Shown: positions 12,279-64,000, counted from the stretch's first letter. The stretch is DNA of 64,000 nucleotides from an uncultured Chloroflexia bacterium (GCA_963763775.1 CAVXPZ010000001.1:864001-928000); one strand, 5' to 3'. The notes: generated from the letters alone by a model not told the origin. Translations and numbers: made by a program.

Positions 12279-12279
12279 G

Positions 12280-45570: not shown

Positions 45571-46173
45571 ATGGACACCGACAACCAGCTCGTCGACGCC
45601 CTCGCGAGCGACCTGGATGGCACGTTCGAGGCCCTCGTGCTCGCGCATCAGGACCGCTGCTACTCGATCGCCCTGCGGATGCTCGGCGACCCCGGTGCGG
45701 CGGAGGAGGCGGCGCAGGACGCACTCGTCCGCGCGTACCGAGCGCTCGGCACGTACGAGCCGGCACGGATCCGCGAGCTTCGCCTGCGGCCCTGGCTGGC
45801 CACGATCGTCCTCAACCTCTGCCGCACGCGGCTGGCCCGGCGGCGGACGGCGGGCCGCGAGCCGCTCTCGCTCGACCTCGAGGGCTCGACGCTCCCGGAG
45901 CCGGTCGCGACCGATGCGTCGGCATCGCCGACGGCCGTCCTCGACCGCCGCGCCGAACGGGACGAGTGGGCCGCCCTCCTGGCCGGATTGCCGCCGGCGT
46001 ACCGGGCCGCCGTCGTCCTGCGTCACGTGGACGGCCTGTCCTATCCCGACCTCGCCCGAGCCCTCGACCGACCCGAAGGCACTGTCAAGGCCCAGGTCCA
46101 CCGGGGCCTGGCGATGTTGCGCACGGCCTACGAGGCGGCGGACCGCGTCGCCTGCCAGGAGATGACCGCATGA
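45571..46173 (+). CDS. ECF (sigma-70 group 4) RNA polymerase sigma factor
   Basis: AEEAAQDALVRAY, PWLATIVLNLCR (region 2); LPPAYRAAVVLRHVDGLSY...EGTVKAQVHRG (region 4); start 45526-45571. Confidence 0.94.
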   Translation: MDTDNQLVDALASDLDGTFEALVLAHQDRCYSIALRMLGDPGAAEEAAQDALVRAYRALGTYEPARIRELRLRPWLATIVLNLCRTRLARRRTAGREPLSLDLEGSTLPEPVATDASASPTAVLDRRAERDEWAALLAGLPPAYRAAVVLRHVDGLSYPDLARALDRPEGTVKAQVHRGLAMLRTAYEAADRVACQEMTA

Positions 46174-46963
46174 CCCTCGACGACCGCACGCTGGAGGCCG
46201 CCATGGCCGACCTGGCGACCACCGCGCCGCCGACGCTCGCCTCGAACACGCTCGTCGCCGTGGGCCTGGCCGACCACATGGCCCGCATGGACTCGGTGAT
46301 CGGGCCGCTGTACGTCGCCTGGAACGGGCTCGGCGTGAGCGCGGTGGAGTCCGAGGAGTTCGCGGCCACCCACGCCGCGCGGACCGGGCGTCGCGTGTAC
46401 CCCGGTGGACGCGCTGCCGCCGGACCTCGCGGCCGCGATCCACCGCCGCCTCGCCGGCGAGCGCGCACGTGCGGATCGACCTCGACCTGCGCGGCCACAG
46501 CGACTTCGAGCGCGACGTCTGGCGCAAGGCCCTCGACATCCCGCGCGGCGAGGTCCGGCCGTACGGCTGGATCGCGGGCGAGATCGGCCGGCCGAAGGCC
46601 GTCCGTGCGGTCGGGACGGCCCTGGGGCACAACCCCGTGCCGCTCATCGTGCCGTGCCACCGGGTGGTCCGCACCGACGGCACGATCGGGCAGTACTCCC
46701 TCGGCGGCCCCGAGAACAAGCGGACGATCCTCGCGTCCGAAGGCCTCGACCCCGACGCGATGGAGGCCGCCGCGCGGCGCGGAGAGCGGCTCATCGGCTG
46801 CGCGTCGACGGGCATCGTGTGCTGGCCCACGTGTCGGACCGGCCGGCACATGCTGCCGAAGAACCGACGGCCGTTCCGGTCTCTCGCGGCCGCCGCGGAC
46901 GCCGGCTACCGGCCGTGCAAGGTCTGCCGGCCCGCGTCCGGCGCGGGATCCGTCGCCGCCTAG
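46170..46963 (+). CDS. ogt: O6-methylguanine-DNA methyltransferase with C-terminal Ada Zn-binding domain (frameshifts ~46405, ~46465)
   Basis: IPRGEVRPYG, RAVGTALGHNPVPLIVPCHRV; C-terminal STGIVCWPTC...GYRPCKVCRP. Confidence 0.9.
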
Positions 46964-47047
46964 GGCAGCCGACCCGGTCACCCTGTTGTCCTACTGGACT
47001 AGGCCAACCGGCCCGCGTACACTGCCCTGATCTTGGACCAACCACCT

Positions 47048-48057
47048 ATGCCAACGGCGCCGCCTGCCCGCCCGAACCAGGGGCCGGGGATCTGGCTCGG
47101 GATGCTCGTGCTCTACCTCGTGTGGGGCTCGACCTATCTCGGGATCGCGGTCGCGGTGGACACGATCCCGCCGTTCGTGATGGCGGCCGCGAGGTTCGCG
47201 CTCGCGGGCCTGGTCCTGCTGCTCTGGTCGCTCGCCCGCGACCGCGGGACGCTTCGCCTGGCCGTCGCGGCGCGAGTGGCGGGACTCGGCGATCGTCGGC
47301 GCGCTCCTGCTCGGCGGCGGCATGGGCATGGTGGCGTTCGGCGAGCAGACGATCCCGTCCGGCATCACCGCCCTCCTCATCGCCCTGATGCCCGTCTGGG
47401 TCGCGGTGTTCGGGGCCGTCCTGCTCGGCGAGCGGCTCCCGCGGCTGGCGGTGATCGGCATCGCGATCGGGTTCGTCGGTGTCGCCGTCCTGGCCGGCCC
47501 GTCGGCGTTCGGCGGGACCGGCGCGCTGGAGCCCACTCGGGCTCGTGGCCGTGCTGCTCTCGCCGATCTGCTGGTCGCTCGGGTCGCTCTTCGCCTCGCA
47601 CCGCGCGACGCTGCCCCGCCAGCCGCTGATGGCGACGAGCGCGCAGATGCTGACAGGCGGCGCGGTGCTGGCGATCATGGGCCTCGCGGCGGGCGAGTTC
47701 GGGCGGTTCGATCCCGCCCAGGTGTCGAGCGAGTCGATCACCGCGTTCCTGTACCTGACGATCATCGGCAGCCTGCTCGCCTTCACGACGTACGGCTGGC
47801 TCCTTCGCAAGGCGCCGCTGCCGCTCATCGCGACCTACGCGTATGTGAACCCGATCGTCGCCGTCGCGCTCGGGGCGCTCGTGCTGCACGAGCCCATCGA
47901 GCCGAGGACCCTCGTCGCGGGCGCGATCATCATCGCCGGGGTGGCGCTCATCGTGACCGCGCGCGGTCGGATGGCGCGGCCGCGGACCATCGCGGAGCCC
48001 GCGGACGTCGGCATCGAGGCCGCGCCCGCGGCCGTCCGGCCCGCCACCAGCGCGTAG
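47048..48057 (+). CDS. EamA/DMT transporter (frameshifts ~47260, ~47535)
   Basis: YLVWGSTYLGI, IPSGITALLIA, TYAYVNPIVAVALG. Confidence 0.9.
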
Positions 48058-48063
48058 TCCCGG

Positions 48064-50066
48064 TCACCCCTCCGCGAGGATCGTCCGCGAGACGCGTCGC
48101 GCGAGCGCCATGACCGTGACCATCGGGTTGACGCCGATCCCGGTCGGGAAGAGCGAGCCGTCACCGACGTACAGGCCCCGAACGACCCGGTCCGCCGAGC
48201 CGGCACCGCCCGTCCCGACCCGCACACGGCCCCACGGATCGCAGGCGTGGGTCCGCGCGTCCGCGCCCATCCGTACCGACCCCATCTGGTGGGCCGAGAA
48301 CACCGTGCCGCGGTTCGGCGCGAAGTCGAAGGCCTCCAGGGCCGCCTCGAACGCGGCGAACGCCGCCGTCTCGGCGCCCGGTTCGAGGCCCGCGCGTCGG
48401 TGCCAGCGCGGCGGCGTCCCGAGGGCGACGATGTCGTTCGCGCCCGCCGCGCGGACGAGGCGTGCCATCCGGACCAGGCCGTGCCGGAGGGTCGCGACCC
48501 CGGTCGCATCGAGGCGGTAGTCGATGCGCACGCGCCCGGCCTTCGTCAGGGTCAGGCGGCCCTCGCCGCCGTCGCGCGTCACCGCGATCAACGGCGCGAT
48601 GCGGGACGCGCCGGCCATCACCTCGGCATGGGCGGCCCGACCCTCCCACGGGAGGGCCAGCGCCATCAGTCCCGGGTGCCCGGGCGCCGACTCGATCACG
48701 TACCCGTTGCGCCCGGGTGCGCCCGCACCGAACTCCAGGGAGCGGGCCCCCTGCATCGTGCCGCGCCACATCTCGATCGGTTCGCTGAAACGGCCCGCGA
48801 TGACCGACACGGGGTGCAGCCGGAGGTTCCTCCCGGTCGCCGGGTGGTCGATACCGGTCCGCTGGAGGATCGCCGGGGTCCGCAGGGCCCCCGCGGCCAG
48901 CACGACGGTCGCCGCACGCACCTCGAGCGGCCGGCCGTTCGCGACGGTCGCCTCGACGCCGACCGCACGGCCGCCCTCGACGATGACCCGCTGGACGTCC
49001 GCGCCCGCGACGATCCGGGCACCGGCCATCGCCGCCCGAGCCAGGTGGACGCGGATCCCGGACTGCTTCGCCCCACGACGGCAGCCGAAGGGGCAGCTCC
49101 CGCAGTCGCCGCACGCGGTCGCGTTCCGGCGCATCGGGGCGGCCTCCCAGCCGAGTGCGCGGGCGCCGCGCAGGATGACGGCGTCCTTGGGCGGGATGTG
49201 GGTCGCCTCGGCGACGCCGAGGTCGGCCTCGACGGCGGCGACATCGTCGGTCCAGGCGGATCCGTCCTCGACGCCCTCCAGCCCGTGGTCGGATGCCCAG
49301 TCGGCCCGGACGTCGGCCGGGGCCTCGATGCAGGTCATCCAGTTCACGAGCGTGCCGCCGCCGACGCCGCGCCCCGACAGCATCGTCACCGAGCCGTCCC
49401 ACGTGGTCAGCAGCCCGTGGTCGAGGTAGAGCCGGTCGAAGGCGGCGAGCTCGTCGGTCGGCATCGTCGACTCGTCCGACGAACTCCCCGGCCTCGAGGA
49501 CGACGACGGACCGGCCGGCCTCGGCCAGCGCGGCCGCGATGACCCCGCCGCCGGCCCCGGACCCGACGACCACGACGTCCGCGTCGAGCACGATCGGCGA
49601 CGCAGGCGTCGGCGCCATCCCCGCCACCCACGGGCACGAACGGCGTGATGGGCGCCCGGTCGGACGTCACCGGCGGCGAGTCCGGCCGGTAGTCGATGAG
49701 GGCATGGAGCGGGTTCGGGCCGCCGTTGCCGGGATCGGCATACGCCAGGAACGTGAGGAGCTTGCGGAGCGCCTGGAACGCGGAGCGGCGCATCGGCAGG
49801 CGCGAGGTGCCCCAGCCCAGGAGATAGCGTTCGCGGGCGTCGAGCGGCATCGCGCTGAAGCCGGACGCCCGGCCGCACAGGGCAAGGTTCGCGGCCCGGG
49901 ACTCCATCAGCCGGAGCACCAGCGACAACTGCGCCCGCTGTGCGGGATCGGCCGCGACCGCGAGGCCGTCGGCGGCGAGCCGCGCTCGGCGGGCCGGGTC
50001 GTGGGCGACGAAGGTCTCGGCCAGCGCCGTCAGCGTCGCCAGCTCTCGATCGGCGGTCTCGGTCAA
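48064..50066 (-). CDS. GMC oxidoreductase, long-chain alcohol oxidase-like (frameshifts ~49475, ~49610)
   Basis: VVVGSGAGGG, GGGTLVNW, CGDCGSCPFGC, GRNLRLHP, SAHQMGSVRMG, FPTGIGVNPMVT. Confidence 0.9.
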
Positions 50067-50261
50067 CGGGTCCTCCGGGCTCGGCCGGAGTATGACCGCG
50101 CGGGCGGACGCATCGCTGGGTTACGGGACGGGGTCGCGCGGACCACGTTCGATACGGACCAAGGTCGCGGCGGTGGCGTCCGCGGGTCGCTCGCGGTCCG
50201 CTTCGGCCGCACGCGGCCCCGACCCCTTGTCGGGAGGCTGCCGGGCTGGCTAGCCTCGGGC

Positions 50262-52205
50262 ATGGACGCCGTCGCGCCGGGACGATCAGGTCGGGCGATG
50301 CCCGCCGCGGCCCTCGCGCCGTTGACACCGGCGGCACCCCCGGCACCGACCGCGACCGGCCACGGATCGGCCTCCCCGGTCGCGACCTTCCTCGAGCGGG
50401 TCCACGAGCGGCACCGCGACCGCACCGACGGCACGGTCGCGACGTATATCCCCGCCCTCGCGGCCGCCGACTCGTCGTGGTTCGGCGTCGCGCTGATGAC
50501 GGTCGACGGGACCGGCTACGACGTCGGCGACAGCCGTCAGCCGTTCACGATCCAGTCGATCTCGAAGCCGTTCACCTATGGCCTCGTCCTCGACGCCCTC
50601 GGCGAGCCGGAGGTCCGCCGACGGATCGGCGTCGAACCGACCGGGGACGCCTTCAACTCGATCACGCTTGCGCCCGGGAGCGGGATCCCGCTCAACCCGA
50701 TGGTGAACGCCGGCGCGATCACCGCGGCGGCCATGGTCGCGATGATCCCGGGCGTCGACCCCCTCTCGCACGTCGTCGAGCGCTTCTCGGCCGCCGCGGG
50801 ACGCCGCCTCGGGATCGACGACGCCGTCCATCGGTCGGAACGCGACACGGGGCACCGCAACCGCGCCATCGGCCATCTGTTGCGAGCGTCACGCGCGCTC
50901 GACGATGACCCCGAGGCGGCGCTCGACCGCTACTTCGCCCAGTGCTCGATCACCGTGGACGCGGTCGCGCTCGCCACGATGGCCGCGACCCTCGCGAACG
51001 GCGGCGTGAACCCGGTCAGCGGGGAGCGCGTGCTCGCGGCCGGCACGGTCCGCTCGGTCCTGAGCGTCATGGCGACCTGCGGCATGTACGACGCCGCCGG
51101 GGAGTGGCTCTACACGGTCGGGCTCCCGGCGAAGAGCGGCGTCGCCGGGGGCGTCCTCGCGGTGGTGCCCGGCGAGCTCGGGATCGCGATCTTCTCGCCA
51201 CCGCTCGATGCGCAGGGCAACAGCGTGCGCGGCGTCGAGGTGTGCCGCGACCTCGTGCGCGAGCTCGACCTGCACCTGCTCGGACGCGGGCCGGCGTCGG
51301 TGCCGCCGCTGCGCGCCAGGCACACGGTCGGACGCCTCGGTTCCAAGCGCGGCCGGACGCCGTCGGAGCGGACCGTCATCGCCCGCGGCGCCTGGCAGGC
51401 CGAGGTGCGCCAGCTCCAGGGCGACCTGACGTTCCTCGCCGCCGAACGGGCGATCCGAGGCCTGGAGGACCCGACCGGAGGTCCACGCTGGGTGGCCCTC
51501 GACCTCGGCCGCACGACGGACATCGAGCCCGGCGCGATCGGGCTCCTCGCGGACCTCGTCGTCGCGATGCGGGCGGACGGCCGCGACCTCGCCGTCGCCA
51601 GCGGGTCCGCCCATCTCGAGGCGCTGGACGCGCTGGACGCCCGTCTCGCCGCGACCGGGCAGCCGGTCGTCCGACGGTTCCCCGACGGCGACCGCGCCCG
51701 GGAGTGGGGCGAGGAGTCGATCCTCGACGACGCGGCCGCCTCGAGCCCCGGGCTTCCCGACCACGACCCGCTGTCGGACGACGAGGCGTTGTTCGGCGGG
51801 CTCTCGGCGGCCGAGCGAACGGCGCTCCAGCACCGCTTCGAACGCCGGCTCTACGCCCCGGGCTCGGTCGTCGTCCGGCGCGGCGACGAGGCGACCGAGC
51901 TGTTCCTCGTGGTCTCGGGGCGGCTGAGCGTCACCGTCGACCGGCCGGACGGCATCAGCCGCCGCCTCACGACGCTCTCGGGCGGCATGGTGTTCGGGGA
52001 GCTGGCGTTCGTCGCGCGCGACCGGCGCACCGCGGACGTGCACGCGGACACCATGGTCGAGTGCCTGGTCCTCGAGGCCGGGGCGTTCGAGGCGCTCCTG
52101 GCCGACGAGCCGCACATCGCCGCGGTCATCCTCTCGAACCTGCTGCGGATCGTGGGCGGCACCGCCCGGCGGCTGACCGACGAGCTCGCGGTGGCGGTCG
52201 ACTGA
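50262..52205 (+). CDS. glsA: Glutaminase A with STAS-like and cNMP-binding domains
   Basis: QSISKPF, EPTGDAFN, NPMVNAGAI, CGMYD, PAKSGVAGG; C-terminal FGELAF...RTADV. Confidence 0.94.
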   Translation: MDAVAPGRSGRAMPAAALAPLTPAAPPAPTATGHGSASPVATFLERVHERHRDRTDGTVATYIPALAAADSSWFGVALMTVDGTGYDVGDSRQPFTIQSISKPFTYGLVLDALGEPEVRRRIGVEPTGDAFNSITLAPGSGIPLNPMVNAGAITAAAMVAMIPGVDPLSHVVERFSAAAGRRLGIDDAVHRSERDTGHRNRAIGHLLRASRALDDDPEAALDRYFAQCSITVDAVALATMAATLANGGVNPVSGERVLAAGTVRSVLSVMATCGMYDAAGEWLYTVGLPAKSGVAGGVLAVVPGELGIAIFSPPLDAQGNSVRGVEVCRDLVRELDLHLLGRGPASVPPLRARHTVGRLGSKRGRTPSERTVIARGAWQAEVRQLQGDLTFLAAERAIRGLEDPTGGPRWVALDLGRTTDIEPGAIGLLADLVVAMRADGRDLAVASGSAHLEALDALDARLAATGQPVVRRFPDGDRAREWGEESILDDAAASSPGLPDHDPLSDDEALFGGLSAAERTALQHRFERRLYAPGSVVVRRGDEATELFLVVSGRLSVTVDRPDGISRRLTTLSGGMVFGELAFVARDRRTADVHADTMVECLVLEAGAFEALLADEPHIAAVILSNLLRIVGGTARRLTDELAVAVD

Positions 52206-52223: not shown

Positions 52224-53432
52224 TCAGGCGCCCGGTCGCTCCCAGCCCTGCGCGGGCCACGGCTCGCAGCGCAACGGGCGGTCCTCGCGATAGCCGAGCG
52301 CGTAGTCGGCCTGGATGAGCGTGTGGAGCTGGCTCGTGCCCTCGTAGATGACCGCCGCCTTCGAGTTGCGCAGATAGCGCTCCACCGGGAACTCGTTCGA
52401 GTAGCCGTTCGCGCCGTGGACCTGGATGGCGTCGAGCGCGCTCTGGACCGCGTGCTCGGTCGCGTGCCACTTGGCGAGGCTGGTCTCGCGCGTGTTGCGG
52501 ACGCCCTGGTTCTTCAGCCAGCCGGCGCGCCAGACGAGGAGCCGGCCGATCTCGATGCCCTTCGCCATGTTGGCGATCATCTGCTTCACGAGCTGGTGCT
52601 CGCCGATCTCCTGCCCGAACGTGTGCCGCTCGTGGGCGTATCGGACGGAGGCGTCGAGGCACGCCTGGGCGAGCCCCACGGCGCCGGCGGCGACGGTGTA
52701 CCGGCCCTGGTCGATCGCGCTCATCGCGACGAGGAACCCCTCGCCCTCCTCGCCGATCCGGTTCTCGAGCGGCACCGCGACGTCGTCCAGGTTGATCATC
52801 CCGGTATTGCCGGCGCGGATCCCGAGCTTGCCGTGCAGCGTGCCGGTCGTCAGGCCGGGCATCCCGCGCTCGAGCATGAACGCGGTCACGCCCTTGTGCT
52901 TCTTCGCGCGGTCGACCGAGGCGAAGACGAGGAAGTGGTCGGCGATGTCCGCGAGGCTGATCCACATCTTCTGGCCGTTCAGCCGGTAGGTGTCGCCCTG
53001 CCGGCGGGCCGTGGTCGCGAGGTTCCCGGCATCGGTGCCGACACCGGGCTCCGTGAGCCCGAACGTCGCGAGCTTCTCGCCGCGAGCCTGCGGGACCAGC
53101 CAGCGCTGCCGCTGCGCCTCGGTCCCCCACTGGAGGAGGGCGAGCGAGTTGAGCCCGACGTGGACGCTCTGGACCACGCGGAAGGCGGTGTCGGCCCGCT
53201 CGAGCTCCTCGCACAGGAGCGCGAAGCTGATGTAGTCCATCCCCGCGCCGCCGTAGGCCTCGGGGATCGGGGCGCCGAGGAATCCCAGCTCGCCCATCGC
53301 CGCGAACACCTCGCGGTGGACCTCGCCGGTCTCGTCCCATGCCCGGATGTTCGGCAGGATCTCGGCTTCGGCGAAGGCGCGAACGCTGTCGCGGACCAGC
53401 TTGTGCTCGTCGGTGAGGGCGAAGTCGACCAA
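52224..53432 (-). CDS. Acyl-CoA dehydrogenase
   Basis: FGLTEPGVGTD, LNGQKMWIS, KLGIRAG, QVHGANGY, IYEGTSQ; SD AGGAGG and TTG start. Confidence 0.95.
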   Translation of the reverse strand: MVDFALTDEHKLVRDSVRAFAEAEILPNIRAWDETGEVHREVFAAMGELGFLGAPIPEAYGGAGMDYISFALLCEELERADTAFRVVQSVHVGLNSLALLQWGTEAQRQRWLVPQARGEKLATFGLTEPGVGTDAGNLATTARRQGDTYRLNGQKMWISLADIADHFLVFASVDRAKKHKGVTAFMLERGMPGLTTGTLHGKLGIRAGNTGMINLDDVAVPLENRIGEEGEGFLVAMSAIDQGRYTVAAGAVGLAQACLDASVRYAHERHTFGQEIGEHQLVKQMIANMAKGIEIGRLLVWRAGWLKNQGVRNTRETSLAKWHATEHAVQSALDAIQVHGANGYSNEFPVERYLRNSKAAVIYEGTSQLHTLIQADYALGYREDRPLRCEPWPAQGWERPGA

Positions 53433-53452
53433 GGGGCCTCCTGCTCGGGCGG

Positions 53453-54098
53453 CTAGGCGAGCGATGCTAGCAGGGCGCGATCGACCCGGGCCGGCCCGGG
53501 CGTCCAGACCGTCGCCACGTGCCCCGCGCCGACGTCGAGCGACTGGCAGGACCCCGGTCCTCGGCCGACCGGCCAAGGCGTCCAGCGAGACCCCGCGGCC
53601 CTTCGCCTCGGCCTCGAGTCCCGTCCACGCCGTGGCGAACGCCGATGGCCAGGCAGGCGACGACGGGCCGATCCGACCCGGCAGCCCGGCCGGGCAGAGG
53701 TAGCGGTCGGCGACGGCCGGGTCGGATCGTCGGCGGTCCACCGGCTCCACGTCGACGCCGACATCGATCGCGTCCGCGACGGCCGCGATCGCGACCGTCC
53801 CGGCATGCGAGAGGCTGGCGCGCCAGCGGCCACCATCCGGGGTGAGGATCCACGGGCGCCCGTGGGCATCCGGCTCCACGCCGATCTCCACCGGGCGACA
53901 CCCGACAAGATGGGCGACCATCGATCGAAGCGTGGCGTGCGCGACGACGAAGCGTCGCGCGTCCTCGGGTCGACGGAACGACCTGGCGCGCCGCTGTTCG
54001 GCCGCATCGAGCGTCGACCATCCGGCTCCCATCGGATCCGTCCCACGGTCGACGCGCCCGACGCCGACGACGACCAGCGGGATGGCGGCCGCGCTCAC
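53453..54098 (-). CDS. Sfp-type 4'-phosphopantetheinyl transferase (frameshift ~53548)
   Basis: HGRPW, ASLSHAG, VGVDVE, WTGLEAEAKGRG; GTG overlaps the NRPS-like stop. Confidence 0.82.
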
Positions 54099-56695
54099 GG
54101 CGGGCCTTCGGCCGCCCGGAGGGTCCGGCTGAGCGAGGCCGCGAAGATCGCCCCGTGGTCGCCCTGGAAGATCGTCTCGTGGTCGACCGGCAGCGGCTCC
54201 CACGTCACATGCTCGGCGAGGCCCTCCCAGAACGTCCGCGGAACGTCGTAATCGCGCGACGTGAACACGACGAAGTCGCCGTCATACGGCATCAGGGCGT
54301 GGCCGCGCCGAGCGCGAGCGAGTTCGTCGAGGTAGCGGTCATGGTCGAGGGGGAGGCCCTCCGGGGGTGGCGTCAAGCGTTGCACGACGAGTCGGCCGAG
54401 GCCGCGGGCCGCGGTCCGAAACCCGCGACGCCGCAGGTGGAAGACGGCTCGTCGCCCGAAGTACGCCGGTCGGCCGGCGTACCAGCGCCAGTCGCGCGGC
54501 CGGTCGACGCGCGGGTCGACGAGCCCGAGCAGGCCGACCGCCTCGCCATCGGAACCGAGACGACGGGCCATCTCGATCGCAACGCGTCCACCCGAGCAGT
54601 AGCCGCCGATGTAGTAGGGGCCTTCCGGCTGGACCGTCCGAACTTCCGCCAGAAAGGCATCGGCGAGCCCGTCGATCGACGGCGGCAGGTTGCCGCCGTC
54701 GACGTTCATCGCGCGCAACCCGTAGAGCGGCTGCTCCGGGTCGAGCGTCCGTCGCAAGGCCGCGGGCCCGATGATCCCGTCGTCGATGTGCACGAAGAAG
54801 AACGGCGGGCGGGCACCCTCGGGCTGGATCGGGAGCAGGGCGGACGTGGGCGCCTGCCACGAGCCGGTGTCGAGGCCGCGCGCATAGCGCTCGATCGTCG
54901 GCGCCCAGAGGAAGGTCGCCAGCGGGAGGTCCTTGGTGCCGAGCCGTTCCCCGATCCGGACGACGATCATCGCGGCGAGCATCGAGTCGCCGCCGACCTC
55001 GAAGAAGTCGTCAAGGACCCCGACGGCGTCGAGGCCGAGCACATCCGACCAGATACTCGCGAGCTCGACCTCTGTCGCGGTGCGCGGCGCGACCCTGGGG
55101 GCCGCGGCTCGGGGCGGTCCCGCAGCACCGGCGCCCGTCGCCGTGCCGTCGTCCTTCGCGAGGCCGAGGCGTGCCGCCAGGCCGATGCGCTGGACCTTGC
55201 CCGTCGGTCCCTTCGGGATCTCGTGCACGATCCGGATCGCCCGCGGGACCTTGAAGTCGGCGAGCCGCTCCGCGAGATCCGCCTGCAGCGCCTGCTCGGT
55301 CAGGGTGGTCCCGTCTCGCGGGACCACGGCCGCGGCGACCTCCTCGCCCAGACGCGCATCCGGCATGGCGAAGACCACCGCTTGCGCCACACCGGGGATC
55401 GCGAGCAGCGCCTCCTCGACCTCGACCGGCGCGACCTTCTCGCCGCCGCGGTTGATGAGCTCCTTGAGCCGGCCGCGCAGGAAGAGATACCCCTCGTCGT
55501 CGAGCGTGCCCTGGTCGCCGGTGCGGAACCACCCGTTCACGAACGCGGTCGCGTTCGCCTCGGGGTTGGCGTCGTAGCCGTCGAAGACCGTCGCGCCGCG
55601 GATGCCCACCTCGCCGAGCGCCCCCGGCTCCAGGACGGCGCCCGTCGGGTCGAGGATCGCGAGATCGATGCCACTCGCCCGGCCGACGGAGCCGGGCTTG
55701 CGAACGCCCGGGGGGATCGGGTTCGTCGCCATCTGGTGGCTGGCCTCGGTCATCCCGTAGGCCTCGACGACGGGCGTCGCGAAGGTCGCCTCGAGCGCCT
55801 CCAGGGTCGCGATCGGCAGCGACGCCGACGACGACCGGATGAACCGGAGCGGCCGACGGTCGATGACCTCGCGATGGGCTGGCGCCCGAGCCAGCACGCC
55901 CTGGTGGATCGTGGGGACGGCCGTGTACCAGGTGGGTCGTTCGTGGTCGAGCCACTCGAAGAACTCGGTGGCGACGAAGCCGGGCGCCGCGACCAGGCTG
56001 CCCCCCGACGCGATCGTCGCGAGCCACGCGGCGACCAGGCCGTGGATGTGGAAGAGCGGCATCACGTTGAGGCAGCGGTCCGCCGGGGTCAGGCCCAGGC
56101 CGTCCGCGACGCTGCTCGCGGAGGCCGCCAGCCGCCCATGGGTGAGCGGCACGAGCTTGGGTCGGGCGGTCGTCCCCGAGGTATGGAGCAGCAGCGCGAC
56201 GTCGTTCGGCGAGGGTGGCGTCGACGGCTGTGCCGGTGCCGCCGGCATCGTGACCGCGGTCATCGGGCGGATGGAGACGGCGCCTGCCGTGCCGCCAGGT
56301 TCGCGGGCCATGGCCAGCACGGGGATGCCGAGACCCGCGGCGACCTCCGGTGCCGCGCTCTCGAGCCCATCCTGGACGATGACCATCGACGCGTGGAGAT
56401 CGTCGAGATAGAACGCGAGCTCGTCGCGACGGTAGGCGGGGTTCAACGGCGCCGCGACGGCCGCGGCGGTGATCCCGAGGAAGGCCACGGCGGCCTCCGG
56501 GCCATTGCCCGTGACGAGGGCCACGCGATCCGTGCGGCCCGCCCCGGCGGCCGCAAGACTCGCCGCCACGTCGCCGACGATATCGGCGAGTCGGGTGAAC
56601 GAGGTGGGCGGCAGGCCGGGCGCCAGGAGGGCGGCTCCGCCCGGATCGCGCTCGGCCGACGCCGCCACGAGGTCCGGGATCGTCGTCATGGGCAT
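54095..56695 (-). CDS. NRPS-like adenylation-thiolation-thioesterase enzyme
   Basis: A: LHTSGTTARPK, PLFHIHGL, YGMTEASHQM, FRTGD, PKGPTGK; T: DDFFEVGGDSM; TE: GPYYIGGYCSGG...D...H. Confidence 0.92.
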   Translation of the reverse strand: MPMTTIPDLVAASAERDPGGAALLAPGLPPTSFTRLADIVGDVAASLAAAGAGRTDRVALVTGNGPEAAVAFLGITAAAVAAPLNPAYRRDELAFYLDDLHASMVIVQDGLESAAPEVAAGLGIPVLAMAREPGGTAGAVSIRPMTAVTMPAAPAQPSTPPSPNDVALLLHTSGTTARPKLVPLTHGRLAASASSVADGLGLTPADRCLNVMPLFHIHGLVAAWLATIASGGSLVAAPGFVATEFFEWLDHERPTWYTAVPTIHQGVLARAPAHREVIDRRPLRFIRSSSASLPIATLEALEATFATPVVEAYGMTEASHQMATNPIPPGVRKPGSVGRASGIDLAILDPTGAVLEPGALGEVGIRGATVFDGYDANPEANATAFVNGWFRTGDQGTLDDEGYLFLRGRLKELINRGGEKVAPVEVEEALLAIPGVAQAVVFAMPDARLGEEVAAAVVPRDGTTLTEQALQADLAERLADFKVPRAIRIVHEIPKGPTGKVQRIGLAARLGLAKDDGTATGAGAAGPPRAAAPRVAPRTATEVELASIWSDVLGLDAVGVLDDFFEVGGDSMLAAMIVVRIGERLGTKDLPLATFLWAPTIERYARGLDTGSWQAPTSALLPIQPEGARPPFFFVHIDDGIIGPAALRRTLDPEQPLYGLRAMNVDGGNLPPSIDGLADAFLAEVRTVQPEGPYYIGGYCSGGRVAIEMARRLGSDGEAVGLLGLVDPRVDRPRDWRWYAGRPAYFGRRAVFHLRRRGFRTAARGLGRLVVQRLTPPPEGLPLDHDRYLDELARARRGHALMPYDGDFVVFTSRDYDVPRTFWEGLAEHVTWEPLPVDHETIFQGDHGAIFAASLSRTLRAAEGPP

Positions 56696-56768
56696 GCCCC
56701 GAGGATAGGCGGCCGGGCTCGAACCGTATACTCGGTCCCCCGCCCAGCCATCTCGGAGTCACGCACCG

Positions 56769-58053
56769 ATGTCGACCCCCGGCACCGCATCGTCCTCGAA
56801 CCTGACGCCCGTCCTGGGGCGCTACTACCAACGCGACTGGAGCCACGGGTCCGGACATCGCCTGTATGACACGGACGGGCGCGCGTACCTCGACTTCGCC
56901 AACGGGATCGCCGTCTCGGCGCTGGGGCACGTCCACCCGAAGGTGACGGCCGCGATCCATGCACAGGTCGACCGGCTCATCGGCCCGATCAACGCCCTGG
57001 GCTTCGCGGAGCCGGTCTCGCGCCTCGCGACCGAGCTCGCGGCGACGTTCCCGGAGCCACTGGATTCCGTGATGTTCCTCAACTCCGGGTCCGAGGCCAT
57101 CGACGGGGCGCTCAAGCTGGCGCGGCGGGTGACCGGCCGGCCCGGGATCATCGCGTTCCGTGGCGGGTTCCACGGCCGGACCTTCGGGGCCACGAGCGTC
57201 ACCACGTCGAACCTGAACTACCGGACCGGCTACGAGCCGCTGCTCCCTGGCGTCTACTTCGCCCCGTTCCCGAACGCGTACGACGACTTCGCGGGCGACG
57301 ACGCCCAGGCCAGCGAGACGTGCCTCTCGATCCTTCGATCGCTGCTGGAGACGATCATCGCGCCGTCGAAGGTGGCGGCGATCCTCATCGAGCCCATCCA
57401 GGGCGAGGGCGGCTTCATCCCGGCGCCGGCGGCCTTCCTCCAGGGCCTGCGAGCGCTCTGCGACGAGCACGGGATCCTGCTGATCGCCGACGAGATCCAG
57501 TCGGGCTACGGGCGGACCGGGCGGATGTGGGCCTTCGAGCACGCCGCGATCGTCCCGGACATCGTGACGGTGGCCAAGGCCATCGCGAACGGCCTGCCGT
57601 TGTCGGCCATCGTGTCGTCACGCGAGCTCCAGGAGCGATGGGGCCGAGGCGCGCACGGCTCCACGTATGGCGGCAACCCGGTCGCCTGTGCCGCCGGCCT
57701 CGCCGTCCTCGAGACCATCCAGGGCGAAGGGCTCATCGCGAACGCCGCGATCCGCGGCGCCGAGCTGAGCGCGGGACTCGCCGCGATCGCGGCCGAGGAC
57801 GAGCGGATCGGCGACATCCGCGGACCAGGTCTGATGGTCGGCGTGGAATTCGTCCGCGACCGGGCGACCCGGGAGCGCGATGGCGACCTGCCGGACCGTC
57901 TGATGGCCGCCTGCGCCGATGCCGGCCTGCTCGTGCTCACGTGCGGGTCCCAGCACGAGACGATCCGCTGGATCCCGCCGCTCGATGTCAGCGCGGCCGA
58001 AGATCGCCGAGGCGGTCGAGATCTTCGGGGACACCCTCTCGCGGTTGCGCTAA
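56769..58053 (+). CDS. Class III PLP aminotransferase (4-aminobutyrate aminotransferase-like; frameshift ~58000)
   Basis: NSGSEA, FHGRT, EPIQGEGG, ADEIQSGYGRTG, VAKAIANG, STYGGNP. Confidence 0.93.
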
Positions 58054-58182
58054 GGGTCTTCGGCCGCCGCGCGCCGGCGTCACGGCTCGGGACGCGAACG
58101 AGCGCCCGTACCCACGCGGGTCGGGCGCTCGGCGTGCGCGGAACGTCGACGACGGATCGGACCAGGGTCCGACCCGAAACGG

Positions 58183-58569: not shown

Positions 58570-59778
58570 TCAGCCGCCGTCGCCTCTCCCTACCGGGTAC
58601 GCATCCGTGGTATCCGGCGCGTCCGCGACGATCGTGATCTCGATCGTCGGGAGCCGCTCCAGGATCCGGTCGGCCAGCGACGAGCGCCGCATCCGGTCCA
58701 GCGCGCTCGACGTCCGATGCGGCATGACCAGCCGCGTGACGCGTCGGCTGCGGGCCACCATGACGATCCCGTCGGCGACATCGGCCGACTCGACCGTGAC
58801 GATCTCGGCCCCGAGGTCCGTCGCGTCGTCGCGAAACTCGCGCAACCGCCGGGTCCGCTCGGATGGCGCGCCGGCGTCGGCCGGCGTCTCCACGAGGACC
58901 GCGAGGAGGGGCGCCCGAAGGATGGCCGCGGTCGCGGCGGCCCGGCGAAGCGCCCGCGGTGTCGCGGGCGACGAGTCCACGAGGACCAGGACACGCTCGC
59001 TGACCGTCTGGAGCAGCCGCTCGCTGCCGATGTCCTCGAGCTGGGCGTCGACCCGGCCCGCAACGAACCGCAGGGCCAGCTCCCGCAGGGCCGTCAGATT
59101 GCCTTCGGTGAAGAACCGGTCGAGGGCGATCCTGGCCCGGTCCTCGGGATACACGTTCCCGTGGCGCATCCGCTGGCGAAGGGCGAACGGGCTCATGTCG
59201 ACGAGCTCGACCTCGTCCGCTGCCGCGAGCACCTCGTCCGGGATGCGCTCGTTGACCGGCGCGCCGGTGATCGTCGCCACCGCGTCGGCGACCGACTCGA
59301 GATGCTGGATGTTGCAGGTGCTCACGACGTCGATCCCGGCGTCGAGGAGCACGCCGACATCCTCCCAGCGCTTGTCGCGCGCCGAGCCAGGCGCGTTCGT
59401 GTGGGCGAGCTCGTCCACCAGGGCCACGGTCGGACGTCGCACGATCACGGCGTCGGTGTCCATCTCCTCGACGACGACGCCGCGGTACTCCACGCGGCGG
59501 CGCGGGACGATCTCGAGTCCGTCCAGCAGTCTCGCGGTCTCGGGCCGACCGTGGGACTCCACGAAGCCGACGACCAGGTCCGTCCCGCGCGCCGTCCTCC
59601 GGTGGCCCTCCTCGAGCATCCGGTACGTCTTGCCGACGCCGGGGGCCATCCCGAGGTAGACGCGCAGTCGACCGCGACCGTCGGCCTGTCGTTCCGCGCC
59701 CCTCGTTCGGGCGAGCATCTCGTCGGCGGTCGGACGTCGGTCGCCGTCGGACCGGTCCGAGCGGTCGCGCTCGGTCAT
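58570..59778 (-). CDS. kdpD: KdpD N-terminal sensor (KdpD domain + USP) lacking TM and histidine kinase regions
   Basis: YLGMAPGVGKTY, LVDELAHTN, KRWEDV, NIQHLES, GNLTALRELAL; ends after the USP domain. Confidence 0.9.
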   Translation of the reverse strand: MTERDRSDRSDGDRRPTADEMLARTRGAERQADGRGRLRVYLGMAPGVGKTYRMLEEGHRRTARGTDLVVGFVESHGRPETARLLDGLEIVPRRRVEYRGVVVEEMDTDAVIVRRPTVALVDELAHTNAPGSARDKRWEDVGVLLDAGIDVVSTCNIQHLESVADAVATITGAPVNERIPDEVLAAADEVELVDMSPFALRQRMRHGNVYPEDRARIALDRFFTEGNLTALRELALRFVAGRVDAQLEDIGSERLLQTVSERVLVLVDSSPATPRALRRAAATAAILRAPLLAVLVETPADAGAPSERTRRLREFRDDATDLGAEIVTVESADVADGIVMVARSRRVTRLVMPHRTSSALDRMRRSSLADRILERLPTIEITIVADAPDTTDAYPVGRGDGG

Positions 59779-60356
59779 CGCAGGAGCCCGTCCAGGTCGA
59801 GATTCAGCTCCAGGACGTTGACCCGGGGCTGCCCCAGGAACCCCAGGAGCGGCTGGGTCGTGTGTCGCGCCACGGCGGCGCGAACGTCGTCCTCGCTGAT
59901 CCCTCGCGTCTTCGCGACGCGGGCCACCTGGTACTCGGCGCCGGCCGGGCTGATGTCCGCGTCGAGCCCGGAGGCGGACGTCGTCACGAGGTCGACCGGG
60001 ATCGGGGCGTCGCCGTTCGCGGCCCGGAAGTCGTCGATGGACGTCTGGATCCGGTCGATCAGGTCCTGGTTGGTCGGACCGAGGTTCGAGCCGGCTGACG
60101 CGTTCGCGTCGTAGCCGTCGCTCCCGGCCGCGGACAGGCGCCCGGAGAAGTACTTCGGGTCGTCGAAGGCCTGACCGATCAGGGTGGACCCGATCGCCGT
60201 TCCGTCGACCACGATCAACGAGCCGTTGGCCTGGTGCGGGAACGCGACCTGGGCCAGCCCCGTGATGACGACGGGGTAGACGATCCCGACGAGGAGGGTG
60301 ATGAGCAGCAGCAGGGCCGCGGCCGGGTAGAGCTGGTGGCGGAGGAAGGTGGTCAT
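59775..60356 (-). CDS. kdpC: K+-transporting ATPase subunit C
   Basis: QANGSLI, SAGSNLGP, DLVTTSASGLD..IS, VNVLELNLDLD. Confidence 0.96.
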   Translation of the reverse strand: MTTFLRHQLYPAAALLLLITLLVGIVYPVVITGLAQVAFPHQANGSLIVVDGTAIGSTLIGQAFDDPKYFSGRLSAAGSDGYDANASAGSNLGPTNQDLIDRIQTSIDDFRAANGDAPIPVDLVTTSASGLDADISPAGAEYQVARVAKTRGISEDDVRAAVARHTTQPLLGFLGQPRVNVLELNLDLDGLLR

Positions 60357-60368
60357 TCGTCGGTCGTC

Positions 60369-62516
60369 CTAGGCGATGTTCAAGGCGGTGAGGAGCATGT
60401 CGATCAGCTTGATCCCCACGAACGGAGCGAGGATGCCGCCGAGCCCGTAGATCAGCAGGTTGCGCTGGAGCAGCGCGCTCGCGGGCGCGGCCCGGAAGGC
60501 GACGCCGCGAAGGGCCAATGGGATGAGTGCCACGATGATCAGGGCGTTGAAGATCACGGCGGCCAGGATCGCGCTCTGGGGTGTCGAGAGCCCCATGACG
60601 TTGAGCGCGTTCAGCTCCGGGTAGACCGTGACGAAGATCGCCGGGATGATCGCGAAGTACTTCGCGAGATCGTTCGCGATCGAGAACGTGGTGATCGCCC
60701 CGCGCGTGATCAGGAGCTGCTTCCCGATCGCGATGACCTCGATGAGCTTGGTGGGGTCCGAGTCGAGGTCGACCATGTTGGCCGCTTCCTTCGAGGCCGA
60801 GGTGCCGCTGTTCATCGCGAGCCCCACGTCGGCCTGCGCGAGCGCCGGCGCGTCGTTCGTGCCGTCACCGGTCATCGCGACGAGGTGCCCGTCCGCCTGC
60901 TCGCGGCGGATGATGGCGATCTTGTCCTCGGGCTTGGCCTCGGCCACGAAGTCGTCGACGCCGGCCTCGGCGGCGATCGTCTTCGCGGTCAGCGGGTTGT
61001 CGCCGGTGATCATGATCGTGCGGATGCCCATCCGGCGGAGCTCCGCGAAACGCTCCGCGAGCCCCGGCTTCACGGTGTCCTTGAGCTCGATGACGCCGAG
61101 CGCTCGACCGTGGCGGCTGATCGCGAGCGGTGTCGCCCCGAGACCGGCGACCTCGTCGCTGACGGCGCCCAGCTCGGGCGGGGGCGCGACCGTCAGGCCG
61201 GCGACGATCGCGTCGACCGCGCCCTTGAGGATCGTGCTGCCGTCGTCGAGCCGGACGCCGCTGGCGCGCGCCTCCGCGGTGAACGGGATCGACTCGACGA
61301 TGGCGTTCTTGAGCGCCGCGTCGTCGACGGAGCCGCCGAGCTCGGCGAGCCGCGCATGGGCGAGGGTCACGATCGACCGGCCCTCGGGGGTCTCGTCGTC
61401 CAGCGAGGCCTGCAAGGCGGCCGTCACGACCTCGGCCTCGTCCGCGCCGGGCATCGGGACGATGCGCGACGCGAGCCGATTGCCGAACGTGATCGTGCCG
61501 GTCTTGTCGAGGAGGATCACGTCGACGTCGCCCGATGCCTCGACGGCCCGCCCGCTCATGGCCAGGACGTTGAAGCGCGCGACGCGGTCCATCCCGGCGA
61601 TCCCGATCGCCGAGAGCAGCCCGCCGATCGTGGTCGGGATGAGGCAGACGAGGAGGGCGATGAGAGCGACCGTGTCCACGGTGGCGCCGGCGTACAGCCC
61701 GAACGGCCGCAACGTCACCGTGGCCATCAGGAAGACGATCGTGAGGCCCGACAACAGGATGGCCAGGGCGATCTCGTTGGGCGTCCGCTGACGCTTCGCG
61801 CCCTCGACGAGGGCGATCATCCGGTCGAGGAAGGTCTCGCCCGGATCGGCGGTGATCCGGATGACCAGCGAGTCACTCGTGAGCTGGGTGCCGCCCGTCA
61901 CCGAGCTGCGGATATCCGTGCCCGGCTCCTTGAGGACGGGGGCGGATTCGCCGGTGATCGCGGACTCGTTGACGTAGGCGACGCCCTCGATGACGTCCCC
62001 GTCGCCGGGGATCGTCTCGGGCTCGCGCACGACGACGATGTCGCCCTTGCGCAGCTCCGAGGAGCCGATGTCCTCGATCGTGCCGTCGGCGCGCGGCGGT
62101 GGGCTGTCGTCTCGGACCGAGTCCGACGAAGCGTCGCGGCCTGCGCCCGGCCGCGCGCCTCGGCGACGGCCTCGGCATACGTGGCGAACAGGACCGTGAA
62201 CCACAGCCACGCGGCGATCTGGACCTGGAAGCCGAGGCCATCGGGCCCGCGTCACCGGCTGGAGACCGGTCACGTTCGCGATCGCGATGATCGTCACCAG
62301 CGCGGCCGTGAGCTCGACGACGAACATGACCGGGTTCCGGATGAGCTGCCGCGGATCGAGCTTGCGGATCGACTGGGGCAGGGCGGCCCGGAGCAGGTCC
62401 GGATCGAAGACGCCACGCGGCTTCGGCGGTTCGCCACTGGGTTTCGCGCCCCCGAGGGAGATGGATCGCTGGAAGCGGCGTGTGCCGCGTCCGAGGTCGA
62501 CGGAGAAGAGCGTCAT
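60369..62516 (-). CDS. kdpB: K+-transporting ATPase subunit B (compensating frameshifts ~62095-62250)
   Basis: [38 protein letters not shown]; out-of-frame stretch restores to [16 protein letters not shown]. Confidence 0.96.
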
Positions 62517-62518
62517 GG

Positions 62519-64000
62519 TCAGGAGGGCCCTCCGGCGTTCTGCATGAGCTGCTCCACGATCGGACCCAGCGCGAGGGCCGGGAAGAACGTCAACGCGCCG
62601 ACGATGAGGATCACGCCGATGAGGAGCACGACGAAGAGCGGGCCGGTCGTCGGGAATGTCCCGAGCGATGGGGCGACGCGTCGCTTGGCCGCCATGGATC
62701 CCGCGAGGGCCAGGACCGGGATGATCATCCCGTAGCGGCCGAGCAGCATCGCGAAAGCGCCCGTGAGGTTGTAGAAGGGGGTGTTGCCGGTCAGGCCGGC
62801 AAACGCGGATCCGTTGTTGCCGGTCTGGCTGCTGAACGCGTACAGGATCTCGCTGAACCCATGCGGGCCGGGGTTGAGCGGACCGGCCAGGCCCTCGGGG
62901 GTCACCGAGGCGAGCGCGGTGAAGCCGAGGATGCTCGCCCCGAGGACCAGGACGACGAGCATCGTCATCTTCATCTCGAAGGCTTCGACCTTCTTGCCGA
63001 GGTACTCCGGGGTCCGCCCGACCATCAGGCCAGCGATGAACACGGCCAGGATGGCGCCGATCACGAGCATGCCGTACAGCCCGGCGCCGATGCCGCCCGG
63101 CGTGATCTCGCCCAGTTCGATGTTGAACAGGGGAACGAGCCCGCCGATCGGCTGGAAGCTGTCGTGCCAGGCGTTGATCGCGCCCGTGCTCGTGCTCGTC
63201 GTGATCGCCGCGAACAGGGCGCCGACGCCGGCACCGAACTTGAGCTCCTTCCCCTCCATGTTGCCGAGGGACTGGTCGAGGCCCGTCGGGTAGAGCGGGT
63301 TCGGGGTGGTCTCCGCGTGGATCGCGACGACCGCGCCGACCAGGAAGACGAGGGCCATCGCGCCGAAGATGACCCAGCCCTGACGCTGGTCCTTCGCGTA
63401 CCGGCCGAACGTGAACGTCAGGGAGAAGGGCACCGCGAACATCAGGATCATCTCGAAGAGGTTCGTCAGTGGGGTCGGGTTTTCGAACGGGTGAGACGAG
63501 TTGGCGTTGAGGAAGCCGCCACCGTTGTTGCCGAGTTCCTTGATGACTTCCTGGGTCGCGATCGGGCCTCGGGCGATGATCTGCTCGATGCCCTGCAGGG
63601 TCGTGACGTTGGCGGGTCCTTCGAAGGTCTGCGGGACGCCCTGCCAGACGAAGATCAGGGCCACCACGACCGAGATCGGCAGGAGGATGTAGAGGATGCC
63701 GCGCGTCAGGTCGACCCAGTAGTTGCCGATCGTCGACGAGGTGCGGCGCGTGAGGCCGCGGACGAGGGCGATCGCGACGGCCAGACCGGTCGCCGCGGAT
63801 GTGAAGTTGCGGACCGCGAGCATCGCCATCTGGGTGAGATAGCTGGCGCCCGTCTCGCCGCTGTAGTTCTGCCAGTTGGTGTTCGTCTCGAAGCTGATCG
63901 AGGTGTTGAAGGCCAGGTCGGGCGATTGCGCGGCGGCCGCCCCGGGGTTCAGCGGGAGGACGTCCTGCAGCCGCAGCATCACGTAGCCGACGACGATCGC
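62519..64000 (-). CDS. kdpA: K+-transporting ATPase subunit A (5' end outside window)
   Basis: TNTNWQNYSGE, KELGNNGGGF, NMEGKE, GRTPEYLGKK, NNGSAFAG, GALTFFPALALGP. Confidence 0.97.
   Translation of the reverse strand, partial: AIVVGYVMLRLQDVLPLNPGAAAAQSPDLAFNTSISFETNTNWQNYSGETGASYLTQMAMLAVRNFTSAATGLAVAIALVRGLTRRTSSTIGNYWVDLTRGILYILLPISVVVALIFVWQGVPQTFEGPANVTTLQGIEQIIARGPIATQEVIKELGNNGGGFLNANSSHPFENPTPLTNLFEMILMFAVPFSLTFTFGRYAKDQRQGWVIFGAMALVFLVGAVVAIHAETTPNPLYPTGLDQSLGNMEGKELKFGAGVGALFAAITTSTSTGAINAWHDSFQPIGGLVPLFNIELGEITPGGIGAGLYGMLVIGAILAVFIAGLMVGRTPEYLGKKVEAFEMKMTMLVVLVLGASILGFTALASVTPEGLAGPLNPGPHGFSEILYAFSSQTGNNGSAFAGLTGNTPFYNLTGAFAMLLGRYGMIIPVLALAGSMAAKRRVAPSLGTFPTTGPLFVVLLIGVILIVGALTFFPALALGPIVEQLMQNAGGPS

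Follow-up and report, generated by a model that had tools for sequence, protein, structure and literature searches.

A two-gene island in a Chloroflexia genome encodes a carrier-linked relative of oxalate-CoA ligases with a cysteine thioesterase

A 64,000-nucleotide stretch of DNA from an uncultured Chloroflexia bacterium (GCA_963763775.1 CAVXPZ010000001.1:864001-928000; hereafter the window, with positions counted from its first letter) contains a self-contained island of two genes that is inserted between an unrelated, conserved gene pair. The larger gene specifies the A-T-TE protein, in which an adenylation (A) domain of the oxalate-coenzyme A (CoA) ligase type is followed by a carrier, or thiolation (T), domain and a thioesterase (TE) with a cysteine nucleophile. 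The smaller gene specifies a putative phosphopantetheinyl transferase (PPTase). As judged from sequence comparisons, the A-T-TE protein belongs to a large, uncharacterized family that combines these three elements. The preferred interpretation, to which a probability of roughly 0.6 is attached, is that the island mediates the transfer of carrier-bound oxalyl groups via Cys700 of the TE to an acceptor outside the island.

In the proposed scheme, the PPTase would bring the carrier domain into its holo form at Ser571, and the A domain would adenylate oxalate and load it as a thioester onto the carrier arm instead of CoA. As the A domain is fused to a carrier and TE, the thiol acceptor should be the protein's own phosphopantetheine arm. 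Cys700 would then take the oxalyl group by transthioesterification, and the TE would hand it to a nucleophile encoded outside the island. The likeliest acceptor would be an amine or hydroxyl group of a common metabolite or of an envelope glycan, yielding an oxalyl amide or ester.

The features of the island are as follows, with window positions:

54095..56695, minus strand: A-T-TE gene, 866 amino acids (P0001), intact; from the open reading frame (ORF) and its translation, four Pfam domains, and full-length relatives 44-71% identical
55160..56695, minus strand: adenylation domain of the oxalate-CoA-ligase type, residues 1-512; from phmmer against the PDB and pocket residues mapped from AAE3
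54878..55063, minus strand: carrier (thiolation) domain, with Ser571 of GGDS at 54983-54985; Pfam PP-binding, E 5.4e-10
54098..54838, minus strand: thioesterase domain, residues 620-866; Pfam Thioesterase, E 6.8e-14
54596-54598 (Cys700), 54515-54517 (Asp727) and 54179-54181 (His839), minus strand: TE triad; from alignment and the T-TE model
53453..54098, minus strand: putative Sfp-type PPTase; HetI and Pfam matches, with the frame broken as assembled at a G4 run

The A-T-TE protein and its oxalate-type adenylation domain

The Pfam matches in the A-T-TE protein comprise AMP-binding (residues 13-374; E 1.2e-67), AMP-binding_C (425-500; E 1.3e-17), PP-binding (545-606) and Thioesterase (667-728). 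This order agrees with a preliminary description of the same DNA in which an A domain, a carrier domain and a TE with a cysteine nucleophile were considered to be fused in one polypeptide. The six motifs on which that description relied are all present, each exactly once in the 866-residue ORF: PLFHIHGL (213-220), WYTAVPTIHQ (256-265), FIRSSSASL (285-293), YGMTEASHQM (313-322), GGDS (568-571) and GYCSG (698-702). The A domain also possesses the ANL core motifs TSGTTARPK and TGDQG as well as the A10 lysine, Lys500. The protein has the order A, T, TE of a single-module enzyme resembling nonribosomal peptide synthetases (NRPSs), including the carrier serine, and the 2.6-kb ORF is intact with every catalytic residue kept.

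The A domain was thought initially to group with oxalate-CoA ligases instead of amino-acid-activating domains, and PDB scores, pocket residues and phylogeny all concur. In phmmer comparisons with PDB sequences, the plant enzymes AAE3 (393 bits) and LsOCS (383) and yeast Pcs60 (342) were followed by FadD13 (226) and the malonyl-CoA synthetase MatB (219), whereas NRPS A domains, such as that of gramicidin synthetase, scored ~150 bits or less. The domain is not of the NRPS type that activates amino acids or aryl-keto acids. Its best NCBIfam match is the FadD7 family at 444 bits, which is under the cut-off of 650 so that no curated equivalog applies.

The oxalate pocket of AAE3 is given in PMC8905533 as V215-H216, C288-S289, A313-M314, H319 and K500, with S289 and H319 reported there to be conserved in oxalate ligases only. 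Carried over through the phmmer PDB alignment, these residues correspond to I217-H218, S289-S290, G314-M315, H320 and K500 of the A-T-TE protein. Thus, both oxalate-specific residues are kept, as S290 and H320, in a pocket made up of H216, I217, H218, S289, S290, G314, M315, H320 and K500, and the departures from the AAE3 pocket so described fall at three of eight positions (V to I, C to S and A to G). Among relatives, S290 and M315 occur in all 127 A-T-TE rows and H320 in 126 of them, and all three residues are present in 57 of 57 stand-alone rows. With few exceptions, the pocket residues overall are common to the 127 A-T-TE rows, to 22 rows of the A-T type and to 70 stand-alone ligases, 13 of which belong to family f15 of the window's own phylum, but they differ in 18 other ANL enzymes. 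In a FastTree phylogeny of 152 A domains, from which eukaryotic reference sequences are absent, all rows at least 44% identical formed one clade with 100% support that was separate from other ANL enzymes. The window protein fell within a subclade of 28 rows (98%) composed of A-T-TE proteins only, and support was weak for the backbone that connects the A, A-T and A-T-TE groups.

Gene context provides a further connection to oxalate. Members of a single gene cluster lie directly downstream of the stand-alone relatives, which are 50-58% identical, in 46 of 52 loci, and the one annotated member of this cluster belongs to the PanE/ApbA family; TctA and TctB clusters were each noted at 10 of the stand-alone loci. 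PanE2 of Methylobacterium is described in PMC8411744 and PMC9485241 as an oxalyl-CoA reductase. Thus, both PanE-type neighbors and pocket residues tie the bacterial branch to oxalate, and an oxalate-type acid is well supported by these comparisons as the predicted substrate class of the A domain. The same architecture and mechanism might instead serve a different very small acid, namely glyoxylate, glycolate, malonate or formate. The three pocket departures from AAE3 would be compatible with such a substrate, as would the subthreshold FadD7 match and the position of malonyl-CoA synthetases as the next family but one. However, the counterparts of AAE3 S289 and H319 are invariant or nearly so in the family, the pocket is the same as that of the stand-alone ligases linked to PanE-family reductase genes, and a gene of the OXC family adjoins one A-T locus (L058). 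Loading of another acid is accordingly viewed as rather improbable.

Thioesterase class and gene contexts in the family

The family was sampled as the best 120 of 8000 scored word-index candidates, which were 44-100% identical and 544-1481 residues in length. The A and carrier families were detected in all 120 proteins and the Thioesterase family in 119. In an alignment of 121 rows, which holds the window's own protein twice, the carrier serine Ser571 is invariant (121 of 121). At the TE nucleophile position, 102 rows have Cys, 16 have Ser and three have Gly, and Asp727 and His839 are kept in 117 and 115 rows, respectively. The cysteine nucleophile that was first noticed in a single protein is shared by most of the aligned family members. 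In the family it is preceded mostly by F or Y and followed by L, S or M.

PDB entries matched by the TE sequence include Skyxy-TE, the EntF TE, AB3403 (E 3.4e-11) and the NocB TE, and a protein-cluster search with the TE part returned generic thioesterase clusters only. In a T-TE model with a predicted local distance difference test score (pLDDT) of 82.4, Cys700 comes after strand 5, Asp727 right behind strand 6, and His839 past strand 8. Asp727 is located 27 residues past Cys700, and the predicted sixth strand corresponds to model residues 185-191. The highest-ranking Foldseek matches of this model were the EntF T-TE and AB3403, the latter in third place, whereas ObiF ranked 11th and SulM 19th. 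According to PMC11298585, no other NRPS TE of known structure apart from AB3403 has a Cys nucleophile accompanied by the usual Asp after β6. In the same paper, the ObiF and SulM TEs are described as having a Cys nucleophile with the Asp relocated after β7 (position II), and SulM as bearing a Gln-Cys-Asn motif. Sequence and model together thus place the TE in the ordinary NRPS type, of the AB3403 kind.

The preliminary description had likened the TE to the cyclizing enzymes ObiF and SulM, which also employ a Cys nucleophile. This analogy fails because the catalytic Asp727 is predicted at the ordinary position after β6 instead of after β7, and it was not carried over since an oxalyl unit has nothing to cyclize. 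Strained-ring formation of the type catalyzed by ObiF (β-lactone) or SulM (β-lactam) is scarcely credible for the A-T-TE protein: although the Cys nucleophile is common to all three, Tyr-Cys-Ser stands where SulM has Gln-Cys-Asn, both cyclizing enzymes rank behind EntF and AB3403 in Foldseek, a second module is absent, and the oxalyl group lacks the β-hydroxyl or β-amine.

Far from being an isolated oddity, the A-T-TE protein is one of many similar members of a large family. Its closest relatives (P0003, P0004, P0007 and P0011) are 64-71% identical, and relatives are labeled by their sources either as oxalate-CoA ligase or as acyl-CoA synthetase/thioesterase proteins. Enzymes of this type occur widely among environmental bacteria, but their distribution is patchy: within the order of a Gaiellaceae carrier, four of 201 genomes harbor one. 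The A-T unit is also used in other settings. Multimodular NRPSs are opened by an A-T unit of the oxalate type in 10 of 80 genome loci, as well as in L169, and a cyanobacterial relative of 1481 residues (P0022; source name Kamptonema formosum) is ordered A-T-C-T-TE. As P0022 has no second A domain, its second carrier would need to be loaded in trans. A metagenome scan with the T-TE protein produced 80 loci that mostly represent generic NRPS termini; oxalate-type A domains were present only in L141 and L186, which are A-T-TE loci, and in the NRPS starter of L169. At one locus in a cyanobacterial bin (L058, 9977-13600), a thiamine pyrophosphate (TPP)-dependent enzyme of the OXC/HACL family starts 4 nucleotides after an oxalate-type A-T gene in an NRPS region. 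The best PDB match of this TPP enzyme is oxalyl-CoA decarboxylase (287 bits), and it may act on a carrier-bound oxalyl group. No oxaloacetate-hydrolase-like lyase was found among 10 flanking ORFs scanned from L016, L022, L047, L054, L058 and L169.

A PPTase gene is situated directly downstream of the A-T-TE gene in four other loci (L012, L013, L221 and L223) and 2.8 kb away in L021. No acceptor-related gene recurs among 11 A-T-TE loci. Sugar or glycan genes flank five of 14 other A-T-TE loci, specifying an RmlC-type protein (L012), a GT2 protein (L013), a GT1 protein (L018), a GlcNAc 2-epimerase (L028) and a TagF-like protein (L223), which is a weak lead to the acceptor. A stronger lead is afforded by A-T didomain proteins of ~600 residues that lack a TE and are encoded directly behind a PglD-like hexapeptide acyltransferase in three loci from two phyla (L049, 3302-17316; L025, 7057-11668; L026, 9296-13072). 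These glycan operons include glycosyltransferases in all three cases and DegT sugar aminotransferases in L049 and L025, an arrangement suggesting that a small acid bound to the carrier serves to N-acylate an amino sugar. As a separate observation, the A-T-TE gene of two genomes of the order Gaiellales is directly downstream of a peptide-chain release-factor gene (L221, 8171-11712; L222, 8050-12714) and is surrounded by housekeeping genes, among them Sua5/YrdC or SHMT. An RF-1 domain also precedes the A domain in the database protein P0064, which is probably a fused gene call.

Transfer is favored over cyclization because the TE appears to be an ordinary NRPS one whose Asp occupies position I, and in view of the sugar, glycan and PglD-like neighbors found elsewhere. 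Use of the carrier is favored because Ser571 is invariant, because the A-T unit starts NRPSs, and because of the A-T-C-T-TE relative. A different role for the TE would be simple hydrolysis, in the editing or turnover of oxalyl or misacylated groups, or else the A domain might produce oxalyl-CoA with the T-TE portion having a regulatory function. Such roles would fit the lack of a linked acceptor gene, the replacement of the nucleophile by Ser or Gly in a minority of family rows, and the presumed function of the stand-alone relatives as CoA ligases. However, hydrolysis alone would consume ATP in a futile cycle, the serine of the carrier never varies and the island has a PPTase of its own, and the A-T unit feeds condensation domains elsewhere. 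Hydrolytic or regulatory roles are considered improbable.

Insertion site, PPTase and condition of the assembly

The features that border the island are as follows:

56696..56768, no strand: divergent intergenic region of 73 bp at which the insertion has its left edge; from visual comparison of the junctions
56769..58053, plus strand: class-III aminotransferase, a flank outside the system; Pfam E 8e-118
52224..53432, minus strand: acyl-CoA dehydrogenase, a flank outside the system; Pfam Acyl-CoA_dh_N/M/1

The window's own genome (G000) is a bin of 3.3 Mb in four contigs that is 87% complete, and the G+C content of the window is 68-76%. The island of ~3.3 kb, consisting of the A-T-TE and PPTase genes, lies between the aminotransferase and acyl-CoA dehydrogenase genes. 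As noted previously, the aminotransferase gene is divergent from the A-T-TE gene and 73 bp from its start, being on the opposite strand with a start at 56769. The aminotransferase and dehydrogenase genes are direct divergent neighbors without an insert, ~80-200 bp apart, in eight of eight congeners examined. The earlier view that the connection of these genes to the island is positional only is thereby upheld, and the two enzymes were rejected as suppliers or tailors of the substrate. The dehydrogenase is a core gene with orthologs 84-92% identical in 33 of 40 congeners, whereas the island was found in G000 and in one other genome (G017) only, among 41 relatives and 401 genomes of the class. 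G017 is also the sole other A-T-TE carrier among 40 relatives, and 400 genomes of the class provided two further matches, one of which is A-only.

Two conserved intergenic elements persist on either side of the insert. The element CGAGTATAC (CGAGT(A/G)TA(C/T)) near the aminotransferase start is kept on one side (window 56700-56768), and CTGCTAGCATCG, which precedes the dehydrogenase start, is kept on the other. The elements may be promoter or operator sites. Across the genus the pre-dehydrogenase element takes the forms (C)TGCTAGCATCG or GCGTAGCATGC (window 53440-53480; intergenic regions of L105-L112), and the last codons and stop of the PPTase gene overlap it.

The PPTase ORF starts with GTG at 54098 and overlaps the stop codon of the A-T-TE gene (GTGA). 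The translational coupling proposed in the preliminary description stands in this respect, but the PPTase is not a single open frame as assembled. The frame from 54098 includes the motifs GVDVE and W..LEAEAK and then reads on into the dehydrogenase gene with no intervening stop. It covers the N-terminal ~180 residues of the PPTase, and a second frame holds the C-terminal PPTase motif LDVGAGHVATVW together with the stop at 53453, the switch being at a G4 run (53552-53555). The corresponding site in G017 is read as GRPRTG-YVHDIDVGPDHVA in a single frame, and the PPTase would be 214 residues in length if the G4 run is one base too long. An apparent PPTase-dehydrogenase fusion of 624 residues (window 52224-54098, minus strand) was rejected as the C-terminal PPTase motif is in the other frame and the genes are separate in G017. 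The PPTase was matched by HetI of NCBIfam (E 4.2e-10), by AASDHPPT_N at 26.8 bits (cut-off 27), and by ACPS at 20.9 bits (cut-off 25); in the genome search PF01648 scored 23.9 bits. It falls outside the blastp cluster formed by PPTases from other A-T-TE loci. The two ACPS and two PP-binding matches found in G000 correspond to AcpS and the acyl carrier protein of fatty acid synthesis, plus the island PPTase and the A-T-TE carrier. Thus, the sole Sfp-type PPTase found in the genome is adjacent to the sole carrier domain found outside fatty acid synthesis, in keeping with the dedicated role initially ascribed to it.

Frame interruptions are common in this assembly. In comparison with nine of nine congeners, the aminotransferase gene has one extra A at 58000-58001, by which its last 17 codons are shifted so that the conserved ending EIAEAVEIFGDTLSRLR (stop 58053) is in another frame; this site is 4.4 kb from the PPTase break. 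Congener genes align to G000 with at least seven frame switches in ~25 kb around the locus, in homopolymers where checked, which is roughly one switch per 3-4 kb. The sites include window 46170-46960, 47012-48054, 53552-53555 and 58000-58001 (G000:C1:910170-912054, on to ~932 kb). Considering the frequency of these switches and the G4 homopolymer, the PPTase and aminotransferase breaks are probable assembly indels; no public sequencing runs were listed for 53400-58100. At this indel rate, the gene calls and completeness figure of the bin are unreliable.

The G017 copy of the A-T-TE gene (L092; G017:C1:633000-652900, ~9776-13000) is interrupted by numerous frame changes, aligns at 73% DNA identity with 105 gap openings, is accompanied by a partial PPTase, and looks like a decaying pseudogene. 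Its flanks are intact, with protein identities of 92% for the dehydrogenase and 82% for the aminotransferase. The possibility arises that the island in G000 is likewise a decaying relic, with a genuinely frameshifted PPTase, a carrier in the apo state and an A-T-TE protein devoid of function. The broken PPTase frame and the G017 copy, which has decayed beside a dehydrogenase that is 92% identical, lend this some weight, as does the absence of the island from the locus in all eight other congeners examined. Nevertheless, the PPTase break is within a homopolymer, the extra A in a core gene 4.4 kb away and the recurrent frame switches fit assembly indels, and the A-T-TE ORF is intact with all catalytic residues. 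Decay is thus regarded as unlikely, though it is to be taken seriously.

Several observations weigh against the transfer of carrier-bound oxalyl groups by the island. The PPTase frame is broken as assembled and the copy in the sole close relative has decayed, so that the island may be dispensable or already failing. The pocket is not identical to that of AAE3, and the A-domain phylogeny contains no eukaryotic reference. The Asp and His of the TE frequently do not line up in distant family members. Among 11 A-T-TE loci only the gene itself and antisense shadows recur, along with the PPTase in three; no other gene is present in at least four. Annotation of the window proteins revealed no sugar genes at the locus itself. 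A gene of the PEP-mutase/ICL family (oxaloacetate-hydrolase type) was not found in the 87% complete G000, and no endogenous oxalate source was identified there. Finally, no biochemical data on carrier-linked members were found in the literature searched, with subscription journals and supplementary files lying outside the search.

The remaining neighborhood is unrelated to the island and specifies a glutaminase with a cyclic-nucleotide-binding domain, a GMC oxidoreductase, an EamA transporter, Ogt/Ada, a sigma factor and Kdp proteins. The long ORF at 49179-52205 (plus strand) consists of a glutaminase domain (E 2e-110) and the C-terminal cyclic-nucleotide-binding domain, and its real start is probably well inside the ORF. 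The Kdp potassium-uptake cluster at 58570-64000 (minus strand) comprises KdpA, KdpB and KdpC and, behind them, an ORF in which only the sensor and Usp domains of KdpD are present; a frame error may have removed the kinase part.

Bacterial oxalate is known as a carbon source, as a chelator, and as a waste product that is handled as oxalyl-CoA. If the transfer reading is correct, a large family tethers oxalate to a carrier in A-T-TE proteins, NRPS starters and glycan operons so that oxalyl groups are built into amides, esters, capped peptides and modified sugars. A functional context would also be available for the less common Cys-type TEs that keep an ordinary catalytic triad. As a broader and tentative proposal that is more doubtful than probable, many bacteria may use carrier-bound oxalate as a hitherto undescribed acyl donor for amines or hydroxyls of metabolites or envelope glycans: the Cys TE would act as a built-in transferase in A-T-TE proteins, PglD-like enzymes would oxalylate amino sugars made by DegT proteins where the A-T didomain is TE-less, and N-oxalyl caps would be added to peptides by the NRPS-linked forms. 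Neither a description of the product of this enzyme type, nor an N-oxalyl polysaccharide or amino sugar, nor other products with built-in oxalyl groups were found in the literature searched. The idea lends itself to a direct test in vitro, since the substrate predicted for the enzyme costs little and only one polypeptide, accompanied by its PPTase, is involved.

Comparison with known systems

AB3403 of Acinetobacter baumannii (PDB 4ZXH/4ZXI) is a stand-alone C-A-T-TE protein with a Cys TE and, like the A-T-TE protein, is a single module that ends in T-TE. In contrast, it has a C domain and an A domain of the amino-acid type, whereas the A-T-TE protein is without a C domain and its A domain is a relative of acyl-CoA ligases. 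The TEs of ObiF1 and SulM share with the A-T-TE protein the Cys nucleophile of an NRPS terminal TE. They act on a β-hydroxy- or β-sulfamoyl-amino acyl peptide, whereas the acyl group of the A-T-TE protein is predicted to be oxalyl. In the structural model and motif comparison, the A-T-TE protein also appears to lack the Asp after β7 and has Y-C-S where SulM has Gln-Cys-Asn.

The nonreducing NRPS-like A-T-TE enzymes of fungi and bacteria, which include quinone and furanone synthetases, exhibit the same three-domain order, and one protein makes up the whole assembly line (PMC9047271). Those enzymes activate aromatic α-keto acids by means of NRPS-type A domains, with a TE that condenses two units, whereas the A domain of the A-T-TE protein is from another ANL branch. 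An oxalyl unit has no α-carbon available for a condensation of that kind. The fungal fumonisin proteins Fum10 and Fum14 offer a different parallel, in which an enzyme that resembles acyl-CoA synthetases and falls into the same broad subgroup probably passes a small polycarboxylic acid to a carrier for ester formation. They differ from the A-T-TE protein in being separate proteins, in release by a C domain, and in the use of a tricarboxylate.

The closest correspondence is with the oxalate-CoA ligases. Arabidopsis AAE3 (PDB 5IE0-5IE3), Lathyrus LsOCS (6QJZ) and yeast Pcs60 (8AFF) have in common with the A-T-TE protein the ANL fold and, on the basis of the AAE3 pocket, the Ser, His and Lys that contact oxalate. 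The stand-alone bacterial ligases have a pocket identical to that of the A-T-TE protein and are united with it in one well-supported clade. These bacterial ligases adjoin PanE2-type reductase genes, whereas the A-T-TE gene in the window has no PanE-type neighbor. Moreover, oxalate-CoA ligases are free-standing proteins of ~510-545 residues that release oxalyl-CoA, whereas the 866-residue A-T-TE protein bears fused PP-binding and Thioesterase domains and for this reason is not filed as a CoA ligase. Overall, sequence comparison suggests that the A-T-TE protein probably works like an oxalate-CoA ligase in the first half-reaction.

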